From: Clostridia bacterium
Lineage (GTDB): Bacteria > Bacillota > Clostridia > Oscillospirales > CAG-272
Assembly (NCBI GenBank): GCA_017453405.1
Contig: JAFTKF010000201.1
Span: 1-35,676 of the forward strand
Reading direction: 5' to 3'
DNA length: 35,676 nucleotides
This document shows positions 10,987 to 20,091 of this stretch, one piece after another; the stretch's first letter is position 1, and every line of letters starts with the position of its first letter. The translations under genes were made by a program, and so were the position numbers. The notes beneath the pieces were generated by a model. It was given only the letters and a program-made list of their open reading frames with translations, was not told the DNA's origin and searched no databases.

Positions 10987-11595
10987 CTAGTTGCCTGCCA
11001 ACGAGAGAATGGCATCGCACACACGCTGATAGCGCGTGGCATCGCCGTCCATCACCAGAACGACCGTATCACCGATCGCATAGGTCTCATAATGTTCATA
11101 TGTCGCACAAACCAGCTTGCGCGGATCGACATTTTTCTTGATCGAGGCGGCAAGCGTTTTGGCGGCATCGGCAGAGCTTGTCTTTAGTATACCCAAAAAG
11201 AACGGAATTGTACCAATGATCGGCTGACAAATTGCCGCTTCCTTGACATCACCTGTCGGCTGTACGAAAAAGTGATAGGAAAAGGTGCTTTTGTCCTTCA
11301 GATTCACGCTGTCGATCACGGTGGTAAGATCGTTCCCGATCGAAGGCTTCAGGGCGTTCAGAATCTCCTGCGCCGTCATCGACGAAAAGCTCGGAGGCGT
11401 ATCTACCCCGCCGGAAGCATCGGCGGTGGTATCGGGCGCTGTCGTGATGTCAGTCGTGCCGCCGTTTGCCGAAGTGTCGGGTTGCGTGTCGACGGTCGCC
11501 GAGGATGTGGTCACGGGCGCTGTGGTTACGGCAGGTGTCGCGCAGGAGACAAGCAATGCCGCAAGAAGCAAAAGTGCAAATACAGCTTTTTTCAT
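10987..11595 (-). CDS. Small lipoprotein (DUF4358-like by context and composition)
   Basis: MKKAVFALLLLAALLVSC has an L-V-S-C lipobox. It is followed by a Thr/Pro-rich linker and a ~120-aa globular domain. An alternative ATG lies at 11607. The 254-aa ORF to 11751 runs through the leader and promoter. Confidence 0.7.
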   Translation of the reverse strand: MKKAVFALLLLAALLVSCATPAVTTAPVTTSSATVDTQPDTSANGGTTDITTAPDTTADASGGVDTPPSFSSMTAQEILNALKPSIGNDLTTVIDSVNLKDKSTFSYHFFVQPTGDVKEAAICQPIIGTIPFFLGILKTSSADAAKTLAASIKKNVDPRKLVCATYEHYETYAIGDTVVLVMDGDATRYQRVCDAILSLAGN

Positions 11596-11752
11596 AAAAA
11601 TTACCATGGCTTTCGTTTGCGAAAGCCTTCCTTTCGTGGGGAATTGGGGCTGGTTTTGCGTAGCAAAATCGTTGTTGTAAGACAACGAAAGCCACAAAAC
11701 CCGCGTGAAAAGAATTTTCACGCTACCTCTCAAAGAAAAATAGATTGCCATT

Positions 11753-11781
11753 ATTCTACCACAAAGTCAGGAAAAAGTAAA
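11753..11781 (-). promoter_or_regulatory. Possible promoter for the minus-strand envelope operon
   Basis: On the minus strand: TTTACT (11781-11776), 17-nt spacer, TAGAAT (11758-11753). It would give a ~150-nt structured leader. Confidence 0.3.
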
Positions 11782-11799
11782 GTCAATCGCTCTTTTTTC

Positions 11800-11828
11800 T
11801 TGCATTCTTTTCTAATATATGTTATAAT
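11800..11828 (+). promoter_or_regulatory. SigA-type promoter with extended -10 for rlmD
   Basis: TTGCAT (11800-11805), 17-nt spacer ending in TGt, TATAAT (11823-11828). It is divergent from the minus-strand operon. Confidence 0.6.
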
Positions 11829-11885
11829 GAAGTAACTATACGAAAAAAATCTGAAAATCCCCCTCATTTTGAAAGGAATTGACCC

Positions 11886-13223
11886 ATGAAGAAAAACGAG
11901 CTTGCTGTTTTGACGATCCTCGATATCAATAACCGCGGCTATGGCGTAGCGCGTGCCGAGGACGGGCGCGTGGTATTCGTCGCCAATGCCGTTACGGGCG
12001 AAACGGTGCAAGCCAAATATATCAAAGTCACCAAGGACTACGCCGTGGCGCGTGTGGAAAAAACGCTGACCAAAAGCGCCTGCCGCATTCCCTCCGACTG
12101 CCAAGCATTCCCTGCCTGCGGCGGGTGCGTGTATCGCCATATTGCCTATGACGATGAATTGAAGCTGAAGGAAAACTATGTCAAAAGCGCCTTCAAAAAG
12201 GCAGGCGTTGCCATCACCGTCGCGCCCTGTGAGTACGGCGACACCGAGGGCTATCGCAATAAGATCGAATGTCCCTTGACCGACGGCTACAAAGCAGGCT
12301 TTTATGCCGCCAAGACCCACCGCGTGATCGCGGCAGACGACTGCAAGCTGGAAAAGCCACAGCTTCGCGCAATTATGACCACCGTGACCGCGTGGCTGGA
12401 GGAGAACGATATTCCGCTCTATCACGAGGAAGACGGCAAAGGGCTTGTTCGGCATATCTATCTCCGTATCGGTGAAAAATCGGGCGAGGTATCGCTTGTG
12501 CTCGTTTTGAACGGAAAAACGCTTCCGCACGCCCAAGACTTTGTCGATACCGTCACACAAAAACACCCCGCGGTCGTATCTATCCTTCTTTCCCATAACG
12601 AGGAAAACACCAACGTGATCCTCGGAAAAAGCGCCACTCTCTTGTACGGAAAGGACGAGATTGAAGATACGCTCTGCTCGCTGACCTTCCGCCTATCCCA
12701 CCGCTCCTTCTATCAGGTCAATGCGCATATGGCGGAAAAGCTCTATCAAAAAGCGCTCACCCTTGCCGCACTCACCCCCGATGACACCCTTGCCGACCTC
12801 TTCTGCGGTGTCGGCACGATCGGATTATTTATGCTGAAGGAATCGGGCGCAAAATCGCTCCTCGGCATCGAGATCATTCCCGAAGCCATCGAAAACGCAC
12901 GCCGCAATGCCAAGCTGAACGGCATTGAAAACGCCACCTTCCTCTGCGGCGATGCCAATCGCGAAGAGCTTGCCTCTGCCGATGTCATCGTGGTCGACCC
13001 ACCAAGAAAGGGCTGCGAAGAATCCCTCCTTTGCCGCATCGCCGCTATCGCCCCCAAACGCCTCGTCTACATCTCCTGCAACCCCGACACCCTCGCAAGA
13101 GATGTCGCAGTGATGGCAAAGTATGGCTATACAACCGATACCGTATATCCGTTTGATCTGTTCCCGAGAACAGGACACGTTGAGAGTGTCGTTTGTCTGA
13201 CGAGGTCAGACAAAGCGACGTGA
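11886..13223 (+). CDS. rlmD: 23S rRNA (uracil-C5)-methyltransferase, RumA/RlmD type (TRAM domain plus 4Fe-4S cluster)
   Basis: N-terminal TRAM-like OB fold, cluster cysteines CRIPSDCQAFPACGGCVYRH, SAM motif DLFCGVGTIGL, DPPRKG, and ISCNP with the catalytic Cys. The C-terminus is FDLFPRTGHVESVVCL. Confidence 0.93.
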   Translation: MKKNELAVLTILDINNRGYGVARAEDGRVVFVANAVTGETVQAKYIKVTKDYAVARVEKTLTKSACRIPSDCQAFPACGGCVYRHIAYDDELKLKENYVKSAFKKAGVAITVAPCEYGDTEGYRNKIECPLTDGYKAGFYAAKTHRVIAADDCKLEKPQLRAIMTTVTAWLEENDIPLYHEEDGKGLVRHIYLRIGEKSGEVSLVLVLNGKTLPHAQDFVDTVTQKHPAVVSILLSHNEENTNVILGKSATLLYGKDEIEDTLCSLTFRLSHRSFYQVNAHMAEKLYQKALTLAALTPDDTLADLFCGVGTIGLFMLKESGAKSLLGIEIIPEAIENARRNAKLNGIENATFLCGDANREELASADVIVVDPPRKGCEESLLCRIAAIAPKRLVYISCNPDTLARDVAVMAKYGYTTDTVYPFDLFPRTGHVESVVCLTRSDKAT

Positions 13224-13317
13224 TATAGACGCCTTCGGCGTCGTGATATGCGCCTGCGGCGCGTGATATGGACACCTGCGGTGTCGTGATATAGAACGCT
13301 ACGCGTTCGTGATATGT
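13176..13317 (+). repeat. Left copy of a 142-bp direct repeat (last 16 rlmD codons plus five GTGATAT-hairpin units)
   Basis: It aligns without gaps to 14486-14627 (offset 1310) with 4 mismatches (13181, 13202, 13204, 13220). None of the mismatches falls in a stem. Confidence 0.95.
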
Positions 13318-13507
13318 CGCTTGCGCGACGTAAGGCGATGGCGTTCCACGCGCACAAAGTGCGCATATCACGCCGAGCAAAGCGAGGCTATATCACGAAA
13401 GCCAACGGCTTTCCATATCACGCTTGCGCAGCAAGCATATCACGACGGCATCGCCGTCCATATCACTCTACCGCAGTGGACAATTCATATCACTCCGCGT
13501 TAGCGGA
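13188..13507. repeat. Hairpin array: 12-13 short stem-loops separated by the conserved linker GTGATAT(A/G) (5 forward copies), then its complement ATATCAC (6 copies)
   Basis: Forward motifs start at 13220, 13243, 13263, 13286 and 13309. Reverse motifs start at 13365, 13390, 13415, 13437, 13460 and 13487. Perfect stems between them all differ in sequence: gacgcc/ggcgtc, gcgcc/ggcgc, gacacc/ggtgtc, gaacgc/gcgttc, gtcgc/gcgac, gcgcac/gtgcgc, gaaagcc/ggctttc, gcttgc/gcaagc, gacggc/gccgtc, tccgc/gcgga. A 14-bp hairpin (13188-13219) is built from the rlmD terminal codons. Confidence 0.9.
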
Positions 13508-13520
13508 CAAAGGAGTATTT

Positions 13521-13874
13521 ATGCCCAAAACCTCCCACGAGCTTGCAATTGAATTTGCAGTTGAAATCACTGAATTATGCTCAAAAATAAAGGGTCGCCC
13601 CGAATATACAAAGCAGCTTATTCGCAGTGCATCTTCAATCAGCGCGAACATTGCGGAAGCAAAATATGCCGAAAGCAACGCTGACTTCGTTCATAAGCTT
13701 GAAATAGCCCAAAAGGAAGCAAACGAAACAGAAACTTGGCTTAGTGTTTTATACAAGAGCGGTATTATTGACGAAGTGACATTCAAATCTCTGCGCAACA
13801 GGTGCGGCAAGATCAGAAGAATGTTGATTGCTTCTATTACAACTGTTAAGACCAAAATAAACGGACAAAAGTGA
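13521..13874 (+). CDS. Four-helix-bundle protein (23S rRNA intervening-sequence protein / DGR Avd-like family)
   Basis: 117 aa from the ATG at 13521 (AAAGGAG RBS). The family signature is LIRSASSISANIAEAKYAESNADFVHKLEIAQKEANETETWL. The ORF-track extension to 13314 is read-through of the repeat array. Confidence 0.85.
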   Translation: MPKTSHELAIEFAVEITELCSKIKGRPEYTKQLIRSASSISANIAEAKYAESNADFVHKLEIAQKEANETETWLSVLYKSGIIDEVTFKSLRNRCGKIRRMLIASITTVKTKINGQK

Positions 13875-13934
13875 GTTTTGAACAAAACGAAATAACTCTA
13901 CTCAGCGCTAAAATTATTTATGAAAGGTTTTATT

Positions 13935-14345
13935 ATGATACCACTTAATATCAAATGTAGTAAATGCGGTGCAATTTGCAGCATATCAAGCCACAGAAAG
14001 TTTACAGTATGTCCGTATTGCGGAGAAAAGACTCCATTTGAGGGCTTTACTTATAGAGAGATAAATCGAAAATCGAGCAAATATGCAAACGTAAAAAAGG
14101 AAATGGACTGCCCGTCTTGTCGAAGCCCTCATATGTTTCTTTATTATTCGTTATTTGGTAAATGGAGATGTGAAGACTGTGGTTACACAATTTCAAATTT
14201 CAATAAAATGTTTGGTGTTTTTTGGTTTTGCGATAATTGCGAGACATATATGAATATTCAAGAGGGGTTCACCACAAAAGAGAAAACGTGGACTTGCACG
14301 GAGTGTGGCTTTAAAAACAGTGTCACTAAAGATGATATTCTTTAA
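13935..14345 (+). CDS. Small triple zinc-ribbon protein (six CxxC pairs), function unknown
   Basis: CSKC/CPYC, CPSC/CEDC and CDNC/CTEC pairs. The ATG at 13935 has a GAAAGG RBS; an upstream in-frame ATG lies at 13920. The region is very AT-rich (I counted 18 G+C in 13921-13980). Confidence 0.75.
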   Translation: MIPLNIKCSKCGAICSISSHRKFTVCPYCGEKTPFEGFTYREINRKSSKYANVKKEMDCPSCRSPHMFLYYSLFGKWRCEDCGYTISNFNKMFGVFWFCDNCETYMNIQEGFTTKEKTWTCTECGFKNSVTKDDIL

Positions 14346-14461
14346 CATTTAAAGAGAATTGCAAAGAGAAGAGAAAAATCTTCTTGATTTTATAACAAAT
14401 AAAATGTGTTGTAAGCAAAAATGAGAACTTTTGGAGTTTTCACTCCCATTTTTCAACCATT

Positions 14462-14533
14462 TTTATACCTTTTGGAGTCTTGACCCACGTGGAGAGTGTC
14501 GTTTGTCTGACAAAGTCAGACAAAGCGACATGA
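14462..14533 (+). pseudogene. Orphan duplicate of the rlmD 3' end (reads ...HVESVVCLTKSDKAT-stop)
   Basis: 14486-14533 is near-identical to 13176-13223, including the stop. The preceding ~24 nt translate to IPFGVLT, which only loosely resembles FDLFPRTG. There is no upstream ORF body. Confidence 0.8.
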
Positions 14534-14627
14534 TATAGACGCCTTCGGCGTCGTGATATGCGCCTGCGGCGCGTGATATGGACACCTGCGGTGTCGTGAT
14601 ATAGAACGCTACGCGTTCGTGATATGT
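14486..14627 (+). repeat. Right copy of the 142-bp direct repeat. Degenerate hairpin units continue to ~14700
   Basis: See the left copy. After 14627 the sequence diverges but keeps the same grammar: hairpin, then CGTAATGC (compare CGTAAGGC at 13329-13336), then gccgc/gcggc and acagca/tgctgt hairpins up to the RBS of the next gene. Confidence 0.95.
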
Positions 14628-14715
14628 ACCCTACGGGCAACGTAATGCCGCGCTCGGTGCGGCGTGTGGGGTGCTGACAGCAGAAGTGATGCTGTAATGC
14701 AAAAAGGAGACTGCT

Positions 14716-15768
14716 GTGAAAGAAGAAAAAAGTATAATAGAAGCAATGTCTGAGACCTTAGCGGATGCAATTGGGGATGACGATTTTTCTCTGCCGCTTG
14801 CCGCGTGGCAAGCAAGCGCTTCCGCATCCGAAGCAATCAATATGGCGTATCGGGAGGAAATCAAACGATACCGGGAAAATCCTGTCCCCGTTTGCAACAA
14901 AGCCGCTGCGCAAAAGCTTTTGAAACGCTTTTCCCGCAAGGATTTTCGCGATTTTTGGACTGCTCCCATCGAAGAATATCTTCCCGCTGTCAGCGAAGGT
15001 ACGATGAAGCTTTGCGAAACGGTTTATCCGCATACCGAAGCGATTCGCTATGCCAAAGAATTGATCGCGACACTTTCGCCAAAGGAATTGGCAAAAGATT
15101 TTCTTTACGGTGTTGCACACAATGCGTCCGAATTCAGAACGGCGCTTGCCTGCTATTACTACATAAAAAATCTCCCCGAGCACGAATTTGAAAAGAAATA
15201 TGTTGGCTCTGTCGTAGGCAAAGACGGTGCATTCGAGGACAGATACAACGAAACCGGATGTGAGATCTGCGGCTATCAGCACGCTGTCAGCCTTGAGCCG
15301 AAAATGCAATTCTGGCACATAAATACGGATATGGCAAATTTCTATTTTGACGGGCGAATGGAGCGTTCCTCACTCAATACGGCAATCATCTTTTTAGAAG
15401 AATATAAAACGGTATCCCGTCCCGAACATTCCATTGCCGATTACAAGCATTTCAAGAAAGTGATCGAGGTTATCGAAAACACACCGCAAACGATGACATC
15501 GGGAAAGCTTCGCCGCGAATTAAAGCAATCGGGACTGCTTTCAATGACACAGGATCAAATCGGGATTTTCATTAACACGCTCGGTTATTTGGATATTCTT
15601 CATTCCGATGATTCACACGGTATGATTTACTCGCACACACCCGAAAAAGAGATGCTGTACCCGCTCAGCGACAGAGGCTATGCCGCACATCCTGTAAACC
15701 GTTGGACGCGCAAATGCGGTATTGACTACGATAGCATTTCCCTGCTTTTTGACGGGCTTTACGAATAA
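14716..15768 (+). CDS. Hypothetical 350-aa soluble protein, no recognisable domain
   Basis: GTG start at 14716, 6 nt after AAGGAG. The ORF is long and uninterrupted with a plausible mixed helical composition. It has a single CEIC pair. Confidence 0.7.
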   Translation: MKEEKSIIEAMSETLADAIGDDDFSLPLAAWQASASASEAINMAYREEIKRYRENPVPVCNKAAAQKLLKRFSRKDFRDFWTAPIEEYLPAVSEGTMKLCETVYPHTEAIRYAKELIATLSPKELAKDFLYGVAHNASEFRTALACYYYIKNLPEHEFEKKYVGSVVGKDGAFEDRYNETGCEICGYQHAVSLEPKMQFWHINTDMANFYFDGRMERSSLNTAIIFLEEYKTVSRPEHSIADYKHFKKVIEVIENTPQTMTSGKLRRELKQSGLLSMTQDQIGIFINTLGYLDILHSDDSHGMIYSHTPEKEMLYPLSDRGYAAHPVNRWTRKCGIDYDSISLLFDGLYE

Positions 15769-15835
15769 GATCTGCTTTTTGCGCGGTGCCGGGCGTTTCA
15801 CAAGAGGAATGGTTAGTATAGCGAAAGGAATACGT

Positions 15836-16297
15836 ATGCAGAAGAGTAACTTGATCATAACTCGTCACGACAACAAAATAACAATTAAGAAAAAACCTGA
15901 GGTTGCACATTGTGTGATTTTCACAATGGTATTTCTCGCAGGGATTTTCCTTCCTATCGTTTTGGATGAGCTAAGAGATGTTGAATTATTTTGGGTGGTT
16001 TATGCCTTCTGTATGTTGACGAATATCGCCACCTTTACATCGGTTTTCTTCGGAAAAATCGTGGTTGACTCCGATAAGAGAGAACTCAATATCTATAATT
16101 TGTGCAGAGAAACGTACCCTTTTGAGGATGTGAAAGAACTCAAGAGTTTCTTTAAAGAGGGGGATTCCGACGGCGGAATGGATACCCACAAAGTGTTGTT
16201 CATATTTACAAACGGGCATCAAAGCGAATTGCAAACAACAAGCCAAGAGCAAACACAGGAACTGATGGAACTATTGAAGTCAATGATATATTCGTGA
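15836..16297 (+). CDS. Small membrane protein: two TM helices plus a beta-rich (bPH-like) C-terminal domain
   Basis: The ATG at 15836 follows GAAAGGAA. TM helices are VAHCVIFTMVFLAGIFLPIVL and FWVVYAFCMLTNIATFTSVFF. The TGA stop is embedded in a GTGATATA motif (16294-16301). Confidence 0.65.
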   Translation: MQKSNLIITRHDNKITIKKKPEVAHCVIFTMVFLAGIFLPIVLDELRDVELFWVVYAFCMLTNIATFTSVFFGKIVVDSDKRELNIYNLCRETYPFEDVKELKSFFKEGDSDGGMDTHKVLFIFTNGHQSELQTTSQEQTQELMELLKSMIYS

Positions 16298-16335
16298 TAT
16301 AATAGCGCCTTCGCCGTCCATACCGTGCACATCAC
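16283..16335. repeat. Degenerate relic of the GTGATAT / ATCAC hairpin array
   Basis: ATGATATA (16283-16290), GTGATATA (16294-16301), then atagcgccttcgccgtc (compare gacgccttcggcgtc in unit 1), then ACATCAC (16329-16335). Confidence 0.5.
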
Positions 16336-16361
16336 AGTAGATTAAGAAAGGAACTATAAAA

Positions 16362-16874
16362 ATGACCAACCGTACCGCGTACACGTATGATCTTTTACTC
16401 AAAACCAATCTCTTTCTGGTAGAAAAGGAGAAGCGAAAGGGGTTGATTACTTGTTTTCTGATGGGGGTCATTGGCATCACTTTTATCCTTATGGACTCAC
16501 TGTCAGAAGATTATTATTGGTTATGTGCCGGGGGCGGATTTTTTGCCGCTTCGCTCCTCAGGCTCTTATTCATACTGAGACTCAGAAAATCGAAGGTTTC
16601 CGAAACGGTAAAAAAATTTATCCAAGAAAATCCCGGAAAGACAGTGGACTATCAATTTGAAGAGAATGCTGTGATCATTCGCGAGAGAAGTCCTCAATAC
16701 CAATCGGATACTTGCCTTTCCTATTCCTTCATCCACAAAGTACAAAAAATTGATGATACCACATTTTATTTTATTTCCTCCAACAACCGCCTCTATGCGG
16801 TAGAGGACGATCGGAATATGGAAGCGATCCTTGTATTTTTAGCGGAAAAAGTGGGAATATGCCTCGAAAAATAA
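16362..16874 (+). CDS. YcxB-like / bPH-architecture membrane protein
   Basis: Two central TM helices (LITCFLMGVIGITFILM, WLCAGGGFFAASLLRLLFIL) followed by a ~90-aa beta-rich domain. The RBS is GAAAGGAA. Confidence 0.65.
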   Translation: MTNRTAYTYDLLLKTNLFLVEKEKRKGLITCFLMGVIGITFILMDSLSEDYYWLCAGGGFFAASLLRLLFILRLRKSKVSETVKKFIQENPGKTVDYQFEENAVIIRERSPQYQSDTCLSYSFIHKVQKIDDTTFYFISSNNRLYAVEDDRNMEAILVFLAEKVGICLEK

Positions 16875-16920
16875 TGTCACCGTTCCGATATCCCAACACA
16901 CGATCGAAAGGAATATTGTT

Positions 16921-17427
16921 ATGATCCCCTACTACTTACAGAAGCACCTGACCGACATACGCGAAAAGAAGGATACCACATCGGCGATCCTTGCCTCCTC
17001 GACCGGCAACACCTTGTTGGAAATCCTGTATTACGGCGACACGGTGACGATCAAGCGGACACCGTATATCACAGACGGCGAGTACCCCTGTCTGATCGTC
17101 GCCAGAGACCCTCTCACCGACGAGACCTTCACGGTTTTTGACGGCGCCAAGCACGGCTATGACGCTATGTTTTGCAATGAGCCATGCGACAAAGCGGAAA
17201 GACCCCTGACTCGCTACAACGCCGAGGGTGCAAGCGTGAAGATCACGCTTGGCTATGCGATCGATTACGAGGACGAAAAAGACGATTATGACTTCACCGA
17301 AACGGGCGAGGTCATCCTCACGTACGGCACAATGGACTGGGAAAAAGCCAAGTCCATCGGCTTCGACTGGCTTTCGCTCTCGTTTGTTGACACCAAAAAG
17401 GAATTTGTCGACCTTGAACTGGTGTAA
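16921..17427 (+). CDS. Hypothetical 168-aa acidic soluble protein
   Basis: The RBS GAAAGGAA precedes the ATG at 16921. I recognise no domain. Confidence 0.65.
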   Translation: MIPYYLQKHLTDIREKKDTTSAILASSTGNTLLEILYYGDTVTIKRTPYITDGEYPCLIVARDPLTDETFTVFDGAKHGYDAMFCNEPCDKAERPLTRYNAEGASVKITLGYAIDYEDEKDDYDFTETGEVILTYGTMDWEKAKSIGFDWLSLSFVDTKKEFVDLELV

Positions 17428-17475
17428 AAACAATCCTTGCCGCGCTTCATTTTTCTTTACGAAAGGATATTGCCT

Positions 17476-18501
17476 ATGCATGCGGTCATTTTTCTCCTGC
17501 TGACACTGATTGATATTACCTCTCTTATTCTGATCGTGAGAAGACTTCGCGACATTCGGAAAAACCCTCACAAATATGATGAAACTGAGCTTGTCAACAG
17601 AGCTGACGACTATGCGAGCAACCGGGACTATTGCCGATTTTTCAAGTCGCTCTCTCACCAATACAGCGGAGTCGGACTGCTTCTTTCCTTTCTCCTGACA
17701 GCTCTCAGCGGCGTACTGCTTTGGGTGCTTGACCGACTGATCGCGGGAAGCGGAACTTCCATCACCCCGGGGGCTCGGGGAGCAGGCATTGTCGCCATGC
17801 TTTTTCTGAATCTGATCGTTGGTATCGCGATCATTCCGCTCCATATCAAAACCCCCTTTTTCACCGTGATGGTCGACGGTGCCTTTGACGGAAACCGTCG
17901 GGATATCTGGAAAAAGAGTTATATCGCCTTTCTCATTCTGTTCGCCATTACTTTTCCGTTTTTCACCCTTTCAGCCAATCACTATACCCACTACAACGAG
18001 AGTGGGATCACCCATTCTGCCTTTTTCCAAATCGACGAGACTTTTACGGCGTATGAAGAGATCGAGGATGTATGGATTTCGGTCGGTCATAACAAGCACG
18101 GACAGTTCTCGGCACTACGGTACGAGGTCTTGCTGTCAGACGGCAGACGCCTTGATCTTTCAAGCACCTATTACAACGAAAACACCCTTGCCATTCACCG
18201 CTATATCGAAGCGACAAGCAATTGCCGTATGCATATCGAGCCTCTCAGCGAGGACGACCTTGCCGAGCTGCAAGAGAGGCTATCCCCCGAACGGCTTGCC
18301 ATCGTTTTGTATATTTTCGAAGGCATTCACGAAACGGCAGAGCCGTCCTCCTTTCACGCCGTCGAAGACGGCATATCACGCTTGCAAAGCAAGCATATCA
18401 CGGGGCTGAGGCTGAAAAAGCCCTTTGTTGACAAATGCGTCGAAAAGCTTTCGCACTGCGATAAGGTAAGCGTGCAAAACCGCTTTCAGGAAAACCCCTG
18501 A
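17476..18501 (+). CDS. Membrane protein (about 4 TM helices) with a soluble C-terminal domain. The last ~60 codons run through a repeat array
   Basis: The ATG at 17476 follows AAAGGA. The first ~170 aa contain TM helices. From about 18324 the reading frame is made of ATATCAC-hairpin units, so the native stop may have been displaced. Confidence 0.6.
   Translation: MHAVIFLLLTLIDITSLILIVRRLRDIRKNPHKYDETELVNRADDYASNRDYCRFFKSLSHQYSGVGLLLSFLLTALSGVLLWVLDRLIAGSGTSITPGARGAGIVAMLFLNLIVGIAIIPLHIKTPFFTVMVDGAFDGNRRDIWKKSYIAFLILFAITFPFFTLSANHYTHYNESGITHSAFFQIDETFTAYEEIEDVWISVGHNKHGQFSALRYEVLLSDGRRLDLSSTYYNENTLAIHRYIEATSNCRMHIEPLSEDDLAELQERLSPERLAIVLYIFEGIHETAEPSSFHAVEDGISRLQSKHITGLRLKKPFVDKCVEKLSHCDKVSVQNRFQENP
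18324..18423. repeat. Third array locus: ATATCAC-type linkers (2 perfect, 2 degenerate) alternating with 5 hairpins
   Basis: In order: CATTCAC (18324-18330), acggc/gccgt hairpin, TTTCAC, gccgtc/gacggc hairpin (18358-18372), ATATCAC (18373-18379), gcttgc/gcaagc hairpin (18380-18394), ATATCAC (18395-18401), gggct/agccc hairpin (18403-18423). The gcttgc-NNN-gcaagc unit also occurs at 13422-13436. Confidence 0.8.
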
Positions 18502-18632: not shown

Positions 18633-19292
18633 ATGGGACTGTTTTTCAAAAAAGAAGCACCCGATCACCGCTATGTACAGGTCAAAATGACCGTGAACGG
18701 CGAAGTCACCTTGGGCTGGATGGTGGATTCGCTCGCCGAGGATGAGGAACAAAACCGCTCGTCCTTCAATAAAAAATACGGCATCAGCTACATCCGCTCG
18801 ATTCCCGATGAGGTGGACGGCTATCCCGTGCTCGGTCTTACGCCAAGCGCGATGCGCTCACTTTACAGCCAACGCACCACGCTGCCCCAAAACGCCGTAT
18901 TCGTTTGCCTGCGCACTGCCCAGCAACGCTTTCTTTCGGCAAAATTCGACAGCGACAAAGAATATGCCATTCCAAGACTGCAATCGAATCTACCGTGGAA
19001 GATCAGCTTTTACAGCAGTGACGGTGTTGGTTATACGCATTACACCGTGCGCGGCGGCTATATCTCGCAAAAAGACGAAAACGGCGAAAAGCGTGAGCTT
19101 TGGAATCTCCGCTTACAGCATTACGGAATGGATGCGCACACCAAGGATGTCCTGATGCATTTCGCGGCAGATATACACACCTACGAGGGCAAGAAAATGG
19201 GCTACGGCGAATTCTGGCCCTGCCTTGTCCGCGAGGATATTGCGGATAGCTTTACCCTGCTGTTTCCCCGAAACGGCGAAACCTTCTTTTAA
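18633..19292 (+). CDS. Hypothetical 219-aa protein
   Basis: An AAAGGAG lies 10 nt upstream of the ATG. I recognise no domain. Confidence 0.6.
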   Translation: MGLFFKKEAPDHRYVQVKMTVNGEVTLGWMVDSLAEDEEQNRSSFNKKYGISYIRSIPDEVDGYPVLGLTPSAMRSLYSQRTTLPQNAVFVCLRTAQQRFLSAKFDSDKEYAIPRLQSNLPWKISFYSSDGVGYTHYTVRGGYISQKDENGEKRELWNLRLQHYGMDAHTKDVLMHFAADIHTYEGKKMGYGEFWPCLVREDIADSFTLLFPRNGETFF

Positions 19293-19320
19293 TTTTATTT
19301 TTTTACCAAAGGAGCACACG

Positions 19321-20091
19321 ATGAAAGCCTGTGAATTATTTCGTGAACTGCTTGCGGGCGCGACACTGCCCGACAGAACCTGTGATACCCTGAAGGCAGG
19401 CGACCCCGAACGCGAGGTCAAAACGATTGCCTTTACGATGTTTGCCAGCGTCGAGGTGATCCGCGAAGCTATCGCTTTCGGTGCGGATCTGCTGATCACG
19501 CACGAGCCCACCTATTACAATCACTATGACGAGCCGATGGACGATCCCATTTACCGCCAAAAGCACGCTTTGATCGAGGAATCGGGGCTGGTCATCTACC
19601 GCTATCACGACGGGATGCATTTTCGCGATACCGACCGCATCACCGAAGGGGAATTGAAGGCGCTCGGCATCACGGGACAGTTTGTAAAGACCTCCTATGC
19701 CGCCTCCTACCGTCTCACGGCAGACGAGCCGATCGCGGCAAGCGAGGTGATCGCGCGCGCCCAAGACCGCCTCGGCATCCGCTATGCGCGTGCGGCAGGC
19801 GATCTTGCGCATCAAACGACAAAAATCGCCGCCTGCTTCGGCACACCCGGCGGTGTCTTTGAGCTGTTACGCGATCCCGAAATCGATATGGTTCTGACCG
19901 GCGAAACCTGCGAATGGGCGCTTTGTGAATACGCACGCGACGCATCCGCTCTCGGCATCCCGAAAGCCCTTGTGGTGATGGGGCATATCGGCTCGGAAAA
20001 GGGCGGTATGATGCACCTTGCCGACACCGTTGCCGCCGCCCATCCCGAGCTTACGGTACGCTACCTCGAATGCGGCGAGGCGTACTGCTGA
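19321..20091 (+). CDS. Nif3-family dinuclear metal-centre protein
   Basis: From the ATG at 19321 (GGAG RBS): V..IAF....S.EVIREAIAFGADLLITHEP and a C-terminal GHIGSEKGGM pattern. The ORF-track start at 19225 overlaps the previous gene. Confidence 0.75.
   Translation: MKACELFRELLAGATLPDRTCDTLKAGDPEREVKTIAFTMFASVEVIREAIAFGADLLITHEPTYYNHYDEPMDDPIYRQKHALIEESGLVIYRYHDGMHFRDTDRITEGELKALGITGQFVKTSYAASYRLTADEPIAASEVIARAQDRLGIRYARAAGDLAHQTTKIAACFGTPGGVFELLRDPEIDMVLTGETCEWALCEYARDASALGIPKALVVMGHIGSEKGGMMHLADTVAAAHPELTVRYLECGEAYC

Follow-up and report, generated by a model that had tools for sequence, protein, structure and literature searches.

Background

The Rfam family Gut-1 (RF01706) was described in 2010 from 43 human-gut metagenome sequences and was rated as certainly RNA on the basis of covariation, with neither a host nor a function assigned to it (PMC2864571). 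The gene rumA/rlmD is an integration target for integrative and conjugative elements (ICEs) in Firmicutes, by which the 3' end of the gene is exchanged, and the elements known from this site are ICEs of large size, in which attR is spanned by a serine integrase gene and the repeats measure 2 - 21 bp (PMC4701971). The present analysis concerns a stretch of 35,676 nucleotides from a Clostridia bacterium (assembly GCA_017453405.1, contig JAFTKF010000201.1, positions 1 to 35,676; the whole 35.7-kb stretch is referred to as the window), and in particular an array of short hairpins, at 13188 - 13507, that lies between rlmD and a gene for a four-helix-bundle protein. Far from standing alone, the array forms the front of a cassette that was acquired by horizontal transfer and took the place of the 3' end of rlmD. 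Judged by its alignment to the Rfam model, the array is a divergent, sub-threshold variant of Gut-1. The motif is already known; literature searches on the linker sequences and on four-helix-bundle genes with hairpin repeats produced nothing relevant, and within the limits of the searchable literature the variant found in the window and its cassette context are not described.

The hairpin array in the window

An initial annotation of this DNA, made from the sequence alone, had drawn attention to five copies of the heptamer GTGATAT followed by six of ATATCAC, spaced 20 - 27 nt from linker to linker, and all of these positions were recovered. The forward copies start at 13220, 13243, 13263, 13286 and 13309 (a run covering 13220 - 13315) and the reverse copies at 13365, 13390, 13415, 13437, 13460 and 13487 (a run covering 13365 - 13493). 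The window contains 24 copies of GTGATAT against 2.8 expected, a number reached in none of 100 shuffles, and within its 35.7 kb the arrays are confined to the rlmD island. Each interval of the array folds into a stem of 5 - 7 bp with a loop of 3 - 4 nt, much as had been annotated, except that two units on the R side are imperfect (GCCGAGCAAAGCGAGGC, and TCTACC..GTGGA with a T.G pair). Eleven non-overlapping perfect hairpins (stem of at least 5 bp, loop of 3 - 4 nt) were counted in 13188 - 13507, whereas 300 dinucleotide shuffles gave 1.08 on average and never more than 5, and the other 320-nt tiles of the window averaged 0.83, and the folding z-score was -9.6 with DNA parameters and -9.7 with RNA parameters. 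The array therefore survives comparison with shuffled sequence, and it is neither unique to one locus nor devoid of covariation, the other ground on which it might have been dismissed: a pattern scan covering one genome per species found at least 120 loci with such arrays, and their stems covary. Most of these loci come from genomes assembled from metagenomes, the hosts being Oscillospiraceae, Acutalibacteraceae, Christensenellaceae and unclassified Clostridia.

Both ends of the array were likewise as the annotation had placed them. The array starts within rlmD, where the codons for VVCLT pair with an inverted copy of themselves that encodes SDKAT; the TGA stop codon of rlmD consists of bases 2 - 4 of the first GTGATAT linker; and the last hairpin ends directly before the ribosome-binding site (RBS) of the four-helix-bundle gene (Table 1). 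The features of the array do not fit those of a CRISPR array, the repeat being 7 nt long and the spacers being palindromes of 13 - 20 nt, with no cas genes in the window. A terminator scan found no array hairpin with a T-run or U-tract, and its two matches at the end of rlmD were weak 5-bp stems.

The array as the head of a cassette

The array opens a unit of about 1.3 kb (13176 - 14485), here called cassette 1, which consists of the array, the four-helix-bundle gene, a zinc-ribbon gene and a right end, contains no integrase, and in whose cargo the GC content falls to 35 - 39%. It is framed by a direct repeat of 142 nt, the two copies of which are 97% identical and both of which contain a 3' end of rlmD (Table 1). 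The linkers of the right copy are ATGATAT and four of GTGATAT, and the junction there is backed by two independent assemblies, L124 and L125 (related loci are designated by such numbers). The tail that the left copy gives to RlmD, HVESVVCLTRSDKAT, is present in proteins that are 100, 82, 68 and 48% identical to the RlmD of the window, and 30 of 120 RlmD homologues bear one of four recurrent palindrome-encoded tails irrespective of how similar the rest of the protein is. In the three of the four types that were examined, the tail is the translation of the 3' arm of the entry palindrome, A0. At least four codon versions of the rlmD end occur in other loci, each with its own matching inverted A0 arm. 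A large serine-integrase att site was considered for A0 and is unlikely, since the arms pair perfectly over 14 - 17 bp around a centre of only 3 nt, and synonymous changes in the codons are matched by changes in the arm.

Two further loci bear on the mobility of the unit. In L246, where the RlmD is only 48% identical and the synteny is different, the tail, A0, the array with its centre, the RBS and the four-helix-bundle gene form a module with 81% DNA identity to that of the window, the four-helix-bundle proteins being 94% identical, and a 27-nt stretch of the rlmD end is repeated on either side of the module (11291 - 11317 and 12774 - 12800). Ahead of the second copy stands the conserved right end, and behind it comes an ordinary ancestral tail (CLTRK and stop) without an array; the array therefore arrived with the element. 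In L248, which has the synteny of the window and an RlmD that is 80% identical, there are at least four tandem cassettes. Each begins with what is left of a right end and of rlmD, the latter in a codon version that differs from cassette to cassette and is followed by its exact inverted arm; then come an array with ATGAATT or GTGAAGT linkers, an RBS and promoterless open reading frames (ORFs), among which are AbiTii and DMP19 family proteins. The right end of cassette 1 is 84% and 77% identical to the sequences before rlmD remnants at two places in L248 and 86% identical to that in L246. The order of rlmD, array and four-helix-bundle gene was found in at least six genomes (the window, L246, L252, L254, L264 and L257). 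The array and the four-helix-bundle gene have been transferred horizontally as a cassette bounded by direct repeats, and such cassettes have accreted in tandem behind rlmD. In L125 (1469 nt, equivalent to 13176 - 14627 of the window), which comes from another sample, it is the right end, and not the body of rlmD, that precedes cassette 1; this contig starts with the last 17 nt of the right end followed by the repeat and ends with the right end and the repeat, at a period of 1310 bp and with one mismatch in the right end, a layout that fits two tandem copies of the cassette or a circle.

The island in L248 runs from 11293 to 15830 and on to about 20700, contains an IS3 element, proteins of the AbiTii, DUF2310 and DMP19 (DNA-mimic) families and numerous small ORFs of unknown function, and looks like a defence or accessory cassette array. 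In L252 and L254, from other Clostridia, rlmD has trmK, NIF3 and a metallophosphoesterase gene as its direct upstream neighbours, while in the window a trmK-like gene (18633 - 19292) and NIF3 lie downstream of the cassette island (18633 - 20091), so the local gene order has been rearranged around the hotspot. Two direct repeats within the right end of cassette 1, CTTTTGGAGTTTTCAC (14428 - 14443) and CTTTTGGAGTCTTGAC (14469 - 14484), stand 41 nt apart and are candidate protein-binding sites. The right-end pattern CTTTTGGAGNCTTGACCCACGT had no match in viral contigs.

Relationship to Gut-1 and architecture of the full element

The initial annotation could place the array in no named repeat family, but Gut-1 is the sole Rfam family that matches the window, and it does so three times: at 13218 - 13297 (42.6 bits, E 4.6e-6), at 14528 - 14607 (43.2 bits) and on the reverse strand at 18321 - 18403 (35.1 bits, E 3.5e-4). 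In all three the model, which has three hairpins joined by GUGAAAU, is aligned over its full length (1 - 77) with stems and linkers in register. None of the matches in the window passes the gathering score of 50 bits, the best being 43.2, and other GC-rich relatives linked to rlmD also fall just under it (47.3 bits in L252 and 39.6 in L264), while 20 matches in 18 related loci score between 50.9 and 74 bits. In the related loci, paired convergent matches on opposite strands cover both halves of single arrays. The window array shares with Gut-1 a series of consecutive short covarying hairpins, a conserved 7-nt linker, loops of the UUC/UUGC type in that sense, and an origin in gut Clostridia; it differs in having GTGATAT as the linker, GC-rich stems, and 5 + 6 units instead of the three that are modelled. 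The Rfam entry is for a 77-nt small RNA (sRNA) known from metagenomes only, and makes no mention of two convergent halves, of a closing helix or an entry palindrome, of a position at gene 3' ends, of a link to the four-helix-bundle gene or of the cassette.

A complete element opens with an entry palindrome and continues with a run of units, in each of which a hairpin of 5 - 7 bp is followed by a 7-nt linker (RTGAWRT); after a short centre the run is repeated in mirror image. The units are polar, and in all 54 arrays with two orientations the forward run precedes the reverse run and never the opposite. Forty-eight canonical copies align from end to end over about 190 nt with the hairpins in a fixed order, namely A0 (variable, 8 - 10 bp, often a T-run terminator), CAGTTnTAT, A1 - A4 with GTGATAT-like linkers, a centre of the form GTT..GGCGAATAnA, and B1 - B3 with ATATCAC. 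In the window, the centre is near-identical to those of L246 and L264, and the loops of the A domain are TNC in four of five cases (TTC, TGC, TGC and TAC), that of A5 being TTGC. The linker varies between arrays (GTGATAT, GTGAAAT, GTGAAGT, GTGAGAT and ATGAATT), with TGA kept in all of them, the forward and reverse linkers are always complementary inside one array, and the linker spacing across arrays is 16 - 27 bp. Arrays with a single orientation also exist. Five of these, of the Christensenella type (L019, L062, L071, L088 and L091), have four or five forward units and a terminal GTTGYGGAATATTCCRC, a palindrome without a loop that resembles a duplex site for a dimeric protein rather than a hairpin.

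The proposal in the initial annotation that selection acts on structure together with the linker is borne out by these comparisons. Across homologous elements 94 - 99% of the stem cells are paired, with two to four Watson-Crick pair types per position, whereas dealing the 3' arms to other sequences gives only 62 - 67% (maximum 76%). There is in addition a long-range closing helix, in which the start of the element (TTnTATTCGCC) pairs with the centre (GGCGAATAn'AA); its variable position is A:T in 19 cases, T:A in 11, C:G in 7, T:G in one and G:T in one, and is never unpaired. In arrays with another linker the closing helix alters along with it (TAAGTTCGCC : GGCGAACTTA). An internal promoter at the AT-rich centre was also considered, as canonical copies contain TATAAT there, and was rejected: the spacing to the -35 is about 20 nt, and the centre in the window lacks the box.

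In other genomes, 37 of 46 elements have their A side behind the 3' end of a co-oriented gene, usually at a distance of 20 - 100 nt, while the neighbour on the B side is mixed in orientation (21 against 14). About 15 of 60 arrays follow a tRNA gene, and others follow groEL (L014) or abut divergent promoters. The idea that the tRNA-linked arrays mark the ends of tRNA islands was rejected, since at 11 loci the tRNA 3' end does not recur downstream over a length of 12 nt or more. All-against-all clustering of 2025 ORFs within 8 kb of the arrays at 120 loci gave no family present in more than 8 loci, and thus no recurrent neighbouring enzyme. Arrays are often found at contig ends, and three other assemblies of the organism represented by the window break at the array. 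When viral contigs were searched with a pattern of three linkers, nearly all of the 120 matches listed were coding tandem repeats and only three were true hairpin arrays (L153, L235 and L240), so that the element is not phage-specific. In L031 there are two near-identical array copies 2.7 kb apart.

The four-helix-bundle gene

The interest that the initial annotation took in the adjacent four-helix-bundle gene has proved justified, since the gene follows arrays not only behind rlmD but also at other sites (L005, L014 and L257, in the last case after a deacetylase gene). The junction of last linker, hairpin, RBS and ATG is the same in L246, L252, L254, L264 and L257 as in the window, and in none of these six is there a promoter-like site between the last hairpin and the RBS; in L005 and L014 the promoter of the gene sits downstream of the array. 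Homologues of the gene are preceded by ATATCAC arrays, and in at least 22 of 120 homologue clusters the predicted proteins have false N-terminal extensions in which YH, HIT, ISR or YIT recurs every 7 - 8 residues, these being translated ATATCAC arrays of differing units. Even so, the functional link between the four-helix-bundle protein and the array is only an association.

The ATATCAC half-array has no stop codon in any frame. Database entries for the protein (P0121 - P0240) are often 150 - 198 aa in length as compared with 117 aa, gene callers having placed the start upstream, and the clusters are large (up to 672 members) and lie on contigs of 0.5 - 2 kb. It was considered whether the type of linker tracks the clade of the four-helix-bundle protein, and this was rejected because two clades that are 50% identical both occur with GTGATAT. 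At 714 - 1300 of L257 the gene lies between an upstream reverse half (ATCTCAC) and a downstream forward half (GTGAGAT) that face outwards, and the mobile unit may on this evidence be "reverse half - cargo - forward half" and not "array - cargo". In a figure legend of the FLSHclust CRISPR survey, "23S rRNA IVP" is named among the domains associated with CRISPR arrays (PMC10910872), and hairpin arrays beside four-helix-bundle genes might contribute to associations of the kind named there.

DNA or RNA, and the role of the array

Non-Watson-Crick pairs amount to about 3%; counted in the sense of the linker there are 11 G:T and 16 A:C, and on the top strand 12 G:T and 7 A:C (4 against 3 in the A half, 8 against 4 in the B half). 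Genuine RNA stems normally carry a large excess of G:U. The loops are strongly polar, those of the GTGATAT strand being TTC, TGC, TAC, TTGC and TTAC, while the ATATCAC strand has 72 C(GNA)G triloops and 23 GNRA tetraloops as against 3 GNA on the opposite strand. C(GNA)G loops are of the d(GCGAAGC) class, which forms unusually stable DNA mini-hairpins. Each DNA strand bears the GNA-type half on its 3' side and, because the halves are mirror images, one transcript would carry both loop types. The lack of a G:T excess, the polar loops and the mirror halves together lead us to favour, on modest counts, a two-fold symmetric function of the array as folded DNA over one as RNA.

The explanation that we put forward, as a tentative one that may well prove wrong in part or whole, is that the array is a Gut-1-type element at the head of an integrase-less mobile cassette of about 1.3 kb and serves as a folded single-stranded site in cis, more probably of DNA than of RNA. 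The cassette would have recombined into the last codons of rlmD, so that it now provides the C-terminus and the stop codon of RlmD, and the previous 3' end would have been pushed to 14486, where it heads a second cassette. A0 would turn the rlmD core into a duplex hairpin, and in each half the units would display, on the ATATCAC strand, mini-hairpins of the stable C(GNA)G kind with the linkers left single-stranded. We infer that the array would in this way act as a structure-specific site for recombination or replication of the cassette, recognised by a factor encoded elsewhere and possibly by the four-helix-bundle protein along with it. A secondary role as a two-way boundary is also conceivable, with a TGA in every linker in the inward-reading direction, and these TGAs might serve as a three-frame stop. 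A much wider generalisation, which we regard as distinctly unlikely, would make Gut-1-type arrays the folded single-stranded DNA (ssDNA) recombination sites of an unrecognised integron-like cassette system in gut Clostridia, and "Gut-1 RNA" would then be a DNA element. Promoterless cassettes would be captured serially at the hairpin-forming 3' end of rlmD and at the 3' ends of other genes and tRNAs by a recombinase that is specific for structure and encoded elsewhere, their expression would come from transcription reading through from the host gene, and the Avd-like protein that is often encoded would bind the array.

A number of observations tell against a folded recombination site at the head of a mobile cassette. 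No recombinase, transposase or HUH gene was found in the window or in the cassettes of L246 and L248, and none is recurrent within 8 kb of 120 arrays, so that the recombining enzyme is hypothetical. L252, L254 and L264 have no downstream rlmD remnant in the available sequence, and the layout of L125 could be an assembly-graph path through the repeat; several of the deductions rest on metagenome assemblies, which break at these repeats. Most arrays elsewhere have neither cargo nor a flanking repeat of the tRNA end; besides heading cassettes, the element thus occurs as a simple repeat between genes. The comparison of G:T with A:C involves only 19 - 27 non-Watson-Crick pairs. Finally, the location of the A side behind a co-oriented gene, and the fact that the four-helix-bundle gene linked to rlmD has no promoter of its own, which means that the array must be transcribed there, both suit an alternative in which the array acts as RNA.

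In that alternative, which is possible but doubtful, transcription of the upstream gene (rlmD, tRNA or groEL) continues into the array, which forms a structured trailer or an intergenic RNA whose hairpins block exonucleases and whose AU-rich single-stranded linkers are RNase sites, so that the transcript is protected or processed; the array might further hold the promoterless cargo at a low level of expression by read-through, or capture an RNA-binding protein on its repeated GUGAUAU sites, and its position at the heads of cassettes would be a consequence of such use. The rating of Gut-1 as RNA from its covariation (PMC2864571) agrees with this, as do the usual distance of 20 - 100 nt from the end of the preceding gene, the RBS that directly follows the last hairpin with no promoter between them, the RNA folding z-score and the two non-Watson-Crick states of the closing helix, both of which are of the G.T type on the top strand. 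Yet pairs of the G:U type are in excess over those of the A:C type on neither strand, and a single transcript would present opposite loop types, UNC and then GNA, which is not expected from selection on one RNA. Triloops closed by C-G, which predominate, are not a favoured class of RNA loop; several arrays abut a divergent promoter or follow a T-run terminator, which leaves no promoter for a B half in the Gut-1 sense; the promoter of the cargo is downstream of the array in L005 and L014; and the terminator scan found no U-tract terminators.

It is less probable still that the arrays are selfish repeats resembling REP (repetitive extragenic palindromic) sequences, bacterial interspersed mosaic elements (BIMEs) or REPINs, copied by a Y1-HUH transposase like the REP-associated tyrosine transposases (RAYTs) or by some other transposase encoded elsewhere, with the place at the head of the cassette due to hitch-hiking or to preferred insertion beside hairpins and terminators. 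Copies are indeed dispersed over many unrelated intergenic contexts with no common neighbouring gene, the near-identical pair in L031 and the frequency of arrays at contig ends are what would be seen with a multi-copy repeat, and the unit is a short conserved motif beside a hairpin in both orientations. The linker GTGATAT(T) bears a resemblance to HUH nick sites such as TG/ATATT of phiX174, which is a lead only. Against this, the hairpins differ within an array and the linker alone is constant, what is copied is the whole element of about 190 nt and not a single REP, and the arrays of the window are limited to the rlmD island. The likeness to REP/BIME that the initial annotation had seen is an analogy only: the GTAG box is missing, the palindromes are not conserved in sequence, and none of the RAYT/HUH partner genes for which it had proposed a search lies in the window or, at the 120 related loci, within 8 kb. 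Hitch-hiking would also leave unexplained why A0 is built from rlmD codons and why the four-helix-bundle gene regularly follows the array. The suggestion that an integrase or excisionase binds the linkers as double-stranded arm-type sites, in the manner of the direct and inverted 7-bp repeats of lambda attP, with the hairpins as incidental spacers, is highly improbable, for although arrays lie immediately beside the crossover core of the cassette and the linker is uniform in an array and differs between arrays (GTGATAT, GTGAAGT, ATGAATT, GTGAGAT) as for a cognate protein, the spacers are strongly selected as palindromes with defined loops, neither of which a duplex site needs, the spacing of 16 - 27 bp gives no helical phasing, and one-orientation and cargo-less arrays far from any att core are common.

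Other features of the rlmD island

The coordinates of the features are collected in Table 1. Behind cassette 1 a second block of cargo lies between a forward half-array and the reverse half-array R2, and shows that cargo can also sit between the two halves. Its ORFs (14716 - 18501) had no matches in Pfam, NCBIfam or PADLOC. R2 overlaps the 3' end of the last of them, which reads through it (341 aa in other assemblies), and its final 60 or so residues (..HIT..AYH..) are probably a translation of the array. Between two of the cargo ORFs, at 16294 - 16335, GTGATAT is followed after 28 nt by ACATCAC, the TGA of this linker being the stop codon of the ORF at 15836 - 16297, and the pair may be a degenerate minimal forward/reverse site inside the second cassette.

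Table 1. Positions of rlmD, the hairpin array and the associated cassettes in the window
Feature	Position	Strand	Description
rlmD	11886 - 13223	+	23S rRNA U1939 methyltransferase; Pfam PF05958/TRAM; homologues named RlmD
Last ~16 codons of rlmD	from 13176		Supplied by the cassette; stop is the TGA of the first linker
Left copy of 142-nt direct repeat	13176 - 13317	+	rlmD 3' core (CACGTTGAGAGTGTCGTTTGTCTGAC), A0 and forward half-array A1 - A4; attL-equivalent
A0 entry palindrome	13188 - 13219	+	GTCGTTTGTCTGAC gag GTCAGACAAAGCGAC; rlmD codons paired with their inverted copy
A domain	13220 - 13329	+	Five GTGATAT linkers, hairpins A1 - A5
Centre (orientation flip)	13330 - 13349	+	GTAAGGCGATGGCGTTCCAC; counterpart of the canonical GTT..GGCGAATAnA
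B domain	13350 - 13507	+	Seven hairpins and six ATATCAC linkers, mirror-image units; abuts the RBS
RBS	13509 - 13515		AAAGGAG; ATG of four-helix-bundle gene at 13521
Four-helix-bundle gene	13521 - 13874	+	First cargo, promoterless; PF05635 / TIGR02436, Avd / 23S-rRNA intervening sequence (IVS) protein family
Triple zinc-ribbon protein gene	13920 - 14345	+	Second cargo; GC content 35 - 39%
Cassette right end	14418 - 14485	+	68 nt, P-arm-like; two CTTTTGGAGTyTTsAC repeats, ends ..CTTGACC
Right copy of 142-nt direct repeat	14486 - 14627	+	Displaced rlmD 3' remnant, A0' and forward half-array; starts second cassette
Second cargo block	14628 - 18320	+	Five co-oriented ORFs of unknown function between forward and reverse half-array
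ORFs of second block	14716 - 15768, 15836 - 16297, 16362 - 16874, 16921 - 17427, 17476 - 18501		Gene calls from L122
Reverse half-array R2	18321 - 18403	-	Two ATATCAC and one degenerate linker; hairpins GCCGTCgaaGACGGC, GCTTGCaaaGCAAGC

Significance

Gut-1 has been an orphan "sRNA" in Rfam since 2010, and to it can now be added hosts, a first genomic context and a recurrent protein partner (PF05635). The full architecture has two-fold symmetry and exceeds the Rfam model in length by a factor of about 2.5, with statistics that argue for DNA over RNA, and its genomic role is at the head of horizontally transferred cassettes stacked behind rlmD. Should the array be a recombination site, it would be the second example, after integron attC, of cassette capture specified by structure, in a phylum in which integrons are essentially unknown; a large branch of Avd / IVS proteins that is not associated with retroelements would also gain a testable function. 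On the practical side, the arrays account for false N-termini of four-helix-bundle proteins in databases, chimeric C-termini of RlmD and metagenome assemblies that are broken at arrays.

Comparison with known systems

The nearest analogies are REP/BIME for the logic of the unit, integron attC for the organisation and elements of the cis-mobilisable (CIME) kind at rumA for the site, and each fails in at least one defining feature. With the REP/BIME/REPIN sequences of proteobacteria the arrays have in common that they are dispersed extragenic palindromic units with a short flanking motif, occur in both orientations and probably fold in ssDNA. The stems of REP are conserved and copied as such, whereas here the stems differ and the linker is kept, and the arrays are distinguished further by the fixed order of hairpins over about 190 nt and by being physically joined both to a mobile cassette and to a coding gene at its 3' end.

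Integron cassettes resemble those described here in being small, promoterless, co-oriented and arranged in tandem behind a fixed chromosomal point (at least four in L248 and two in the window), and attC is likewise a structured imperfect palindrome of which the structure and not the sequence is conserved, with inverted 7-nt boxes. There is no IntI or other recombinase beside rlmD or in the cassette arrays of the window, L246 and L248. The linkers are RTGAWRT, in a site of many hairpins, and are not the R''-L''/L'-R' boxes of attC (RYYYAAC / GTTRRRY). The site stands at the head of the cassette, and each cassette has a copy of the target-gene 3' end together with a right arm, as in integrative elements of the Campbell type. 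Recombination through folded ssDNA is, for the present arrays, a proposed mechanism.

The four-helix-bundle protein belongs to the same family, Avd/PF05635, as those of diversity-generating retroelements and of 23S rRNA intervening sequences, members of which accompany structured elements in conserved genes, but the neighbourhood here contains neither a reverse transcriptase nor a template/variable repeat or an rRNA gene. The integrative elements and CIMEs found at rumA/rlmD in Firmicutes share with the cassettes the insertion at the 3' end of the gene, the replacement of the C-terminus, the direct repeats, the tandem accretion and, in the case of CIMEs, the lack of an integrase of their own. 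Direct repeats of the target-gene 3' end and a surrogate 3' end are present in both the window and L246, and with no integrase among the cargo (the four-helix-bundle protein, the zinc-ribbon protein and ORFs of unknown function) the cassettes fit only the non-autonomous, CIME-like class. They differ from the rumA ICEs in their size of 0.7 - 3 kb, in having no recombinase that could be found, in a repeat of 27 - 142 nt, and in the hairpin array that stands at the junction.

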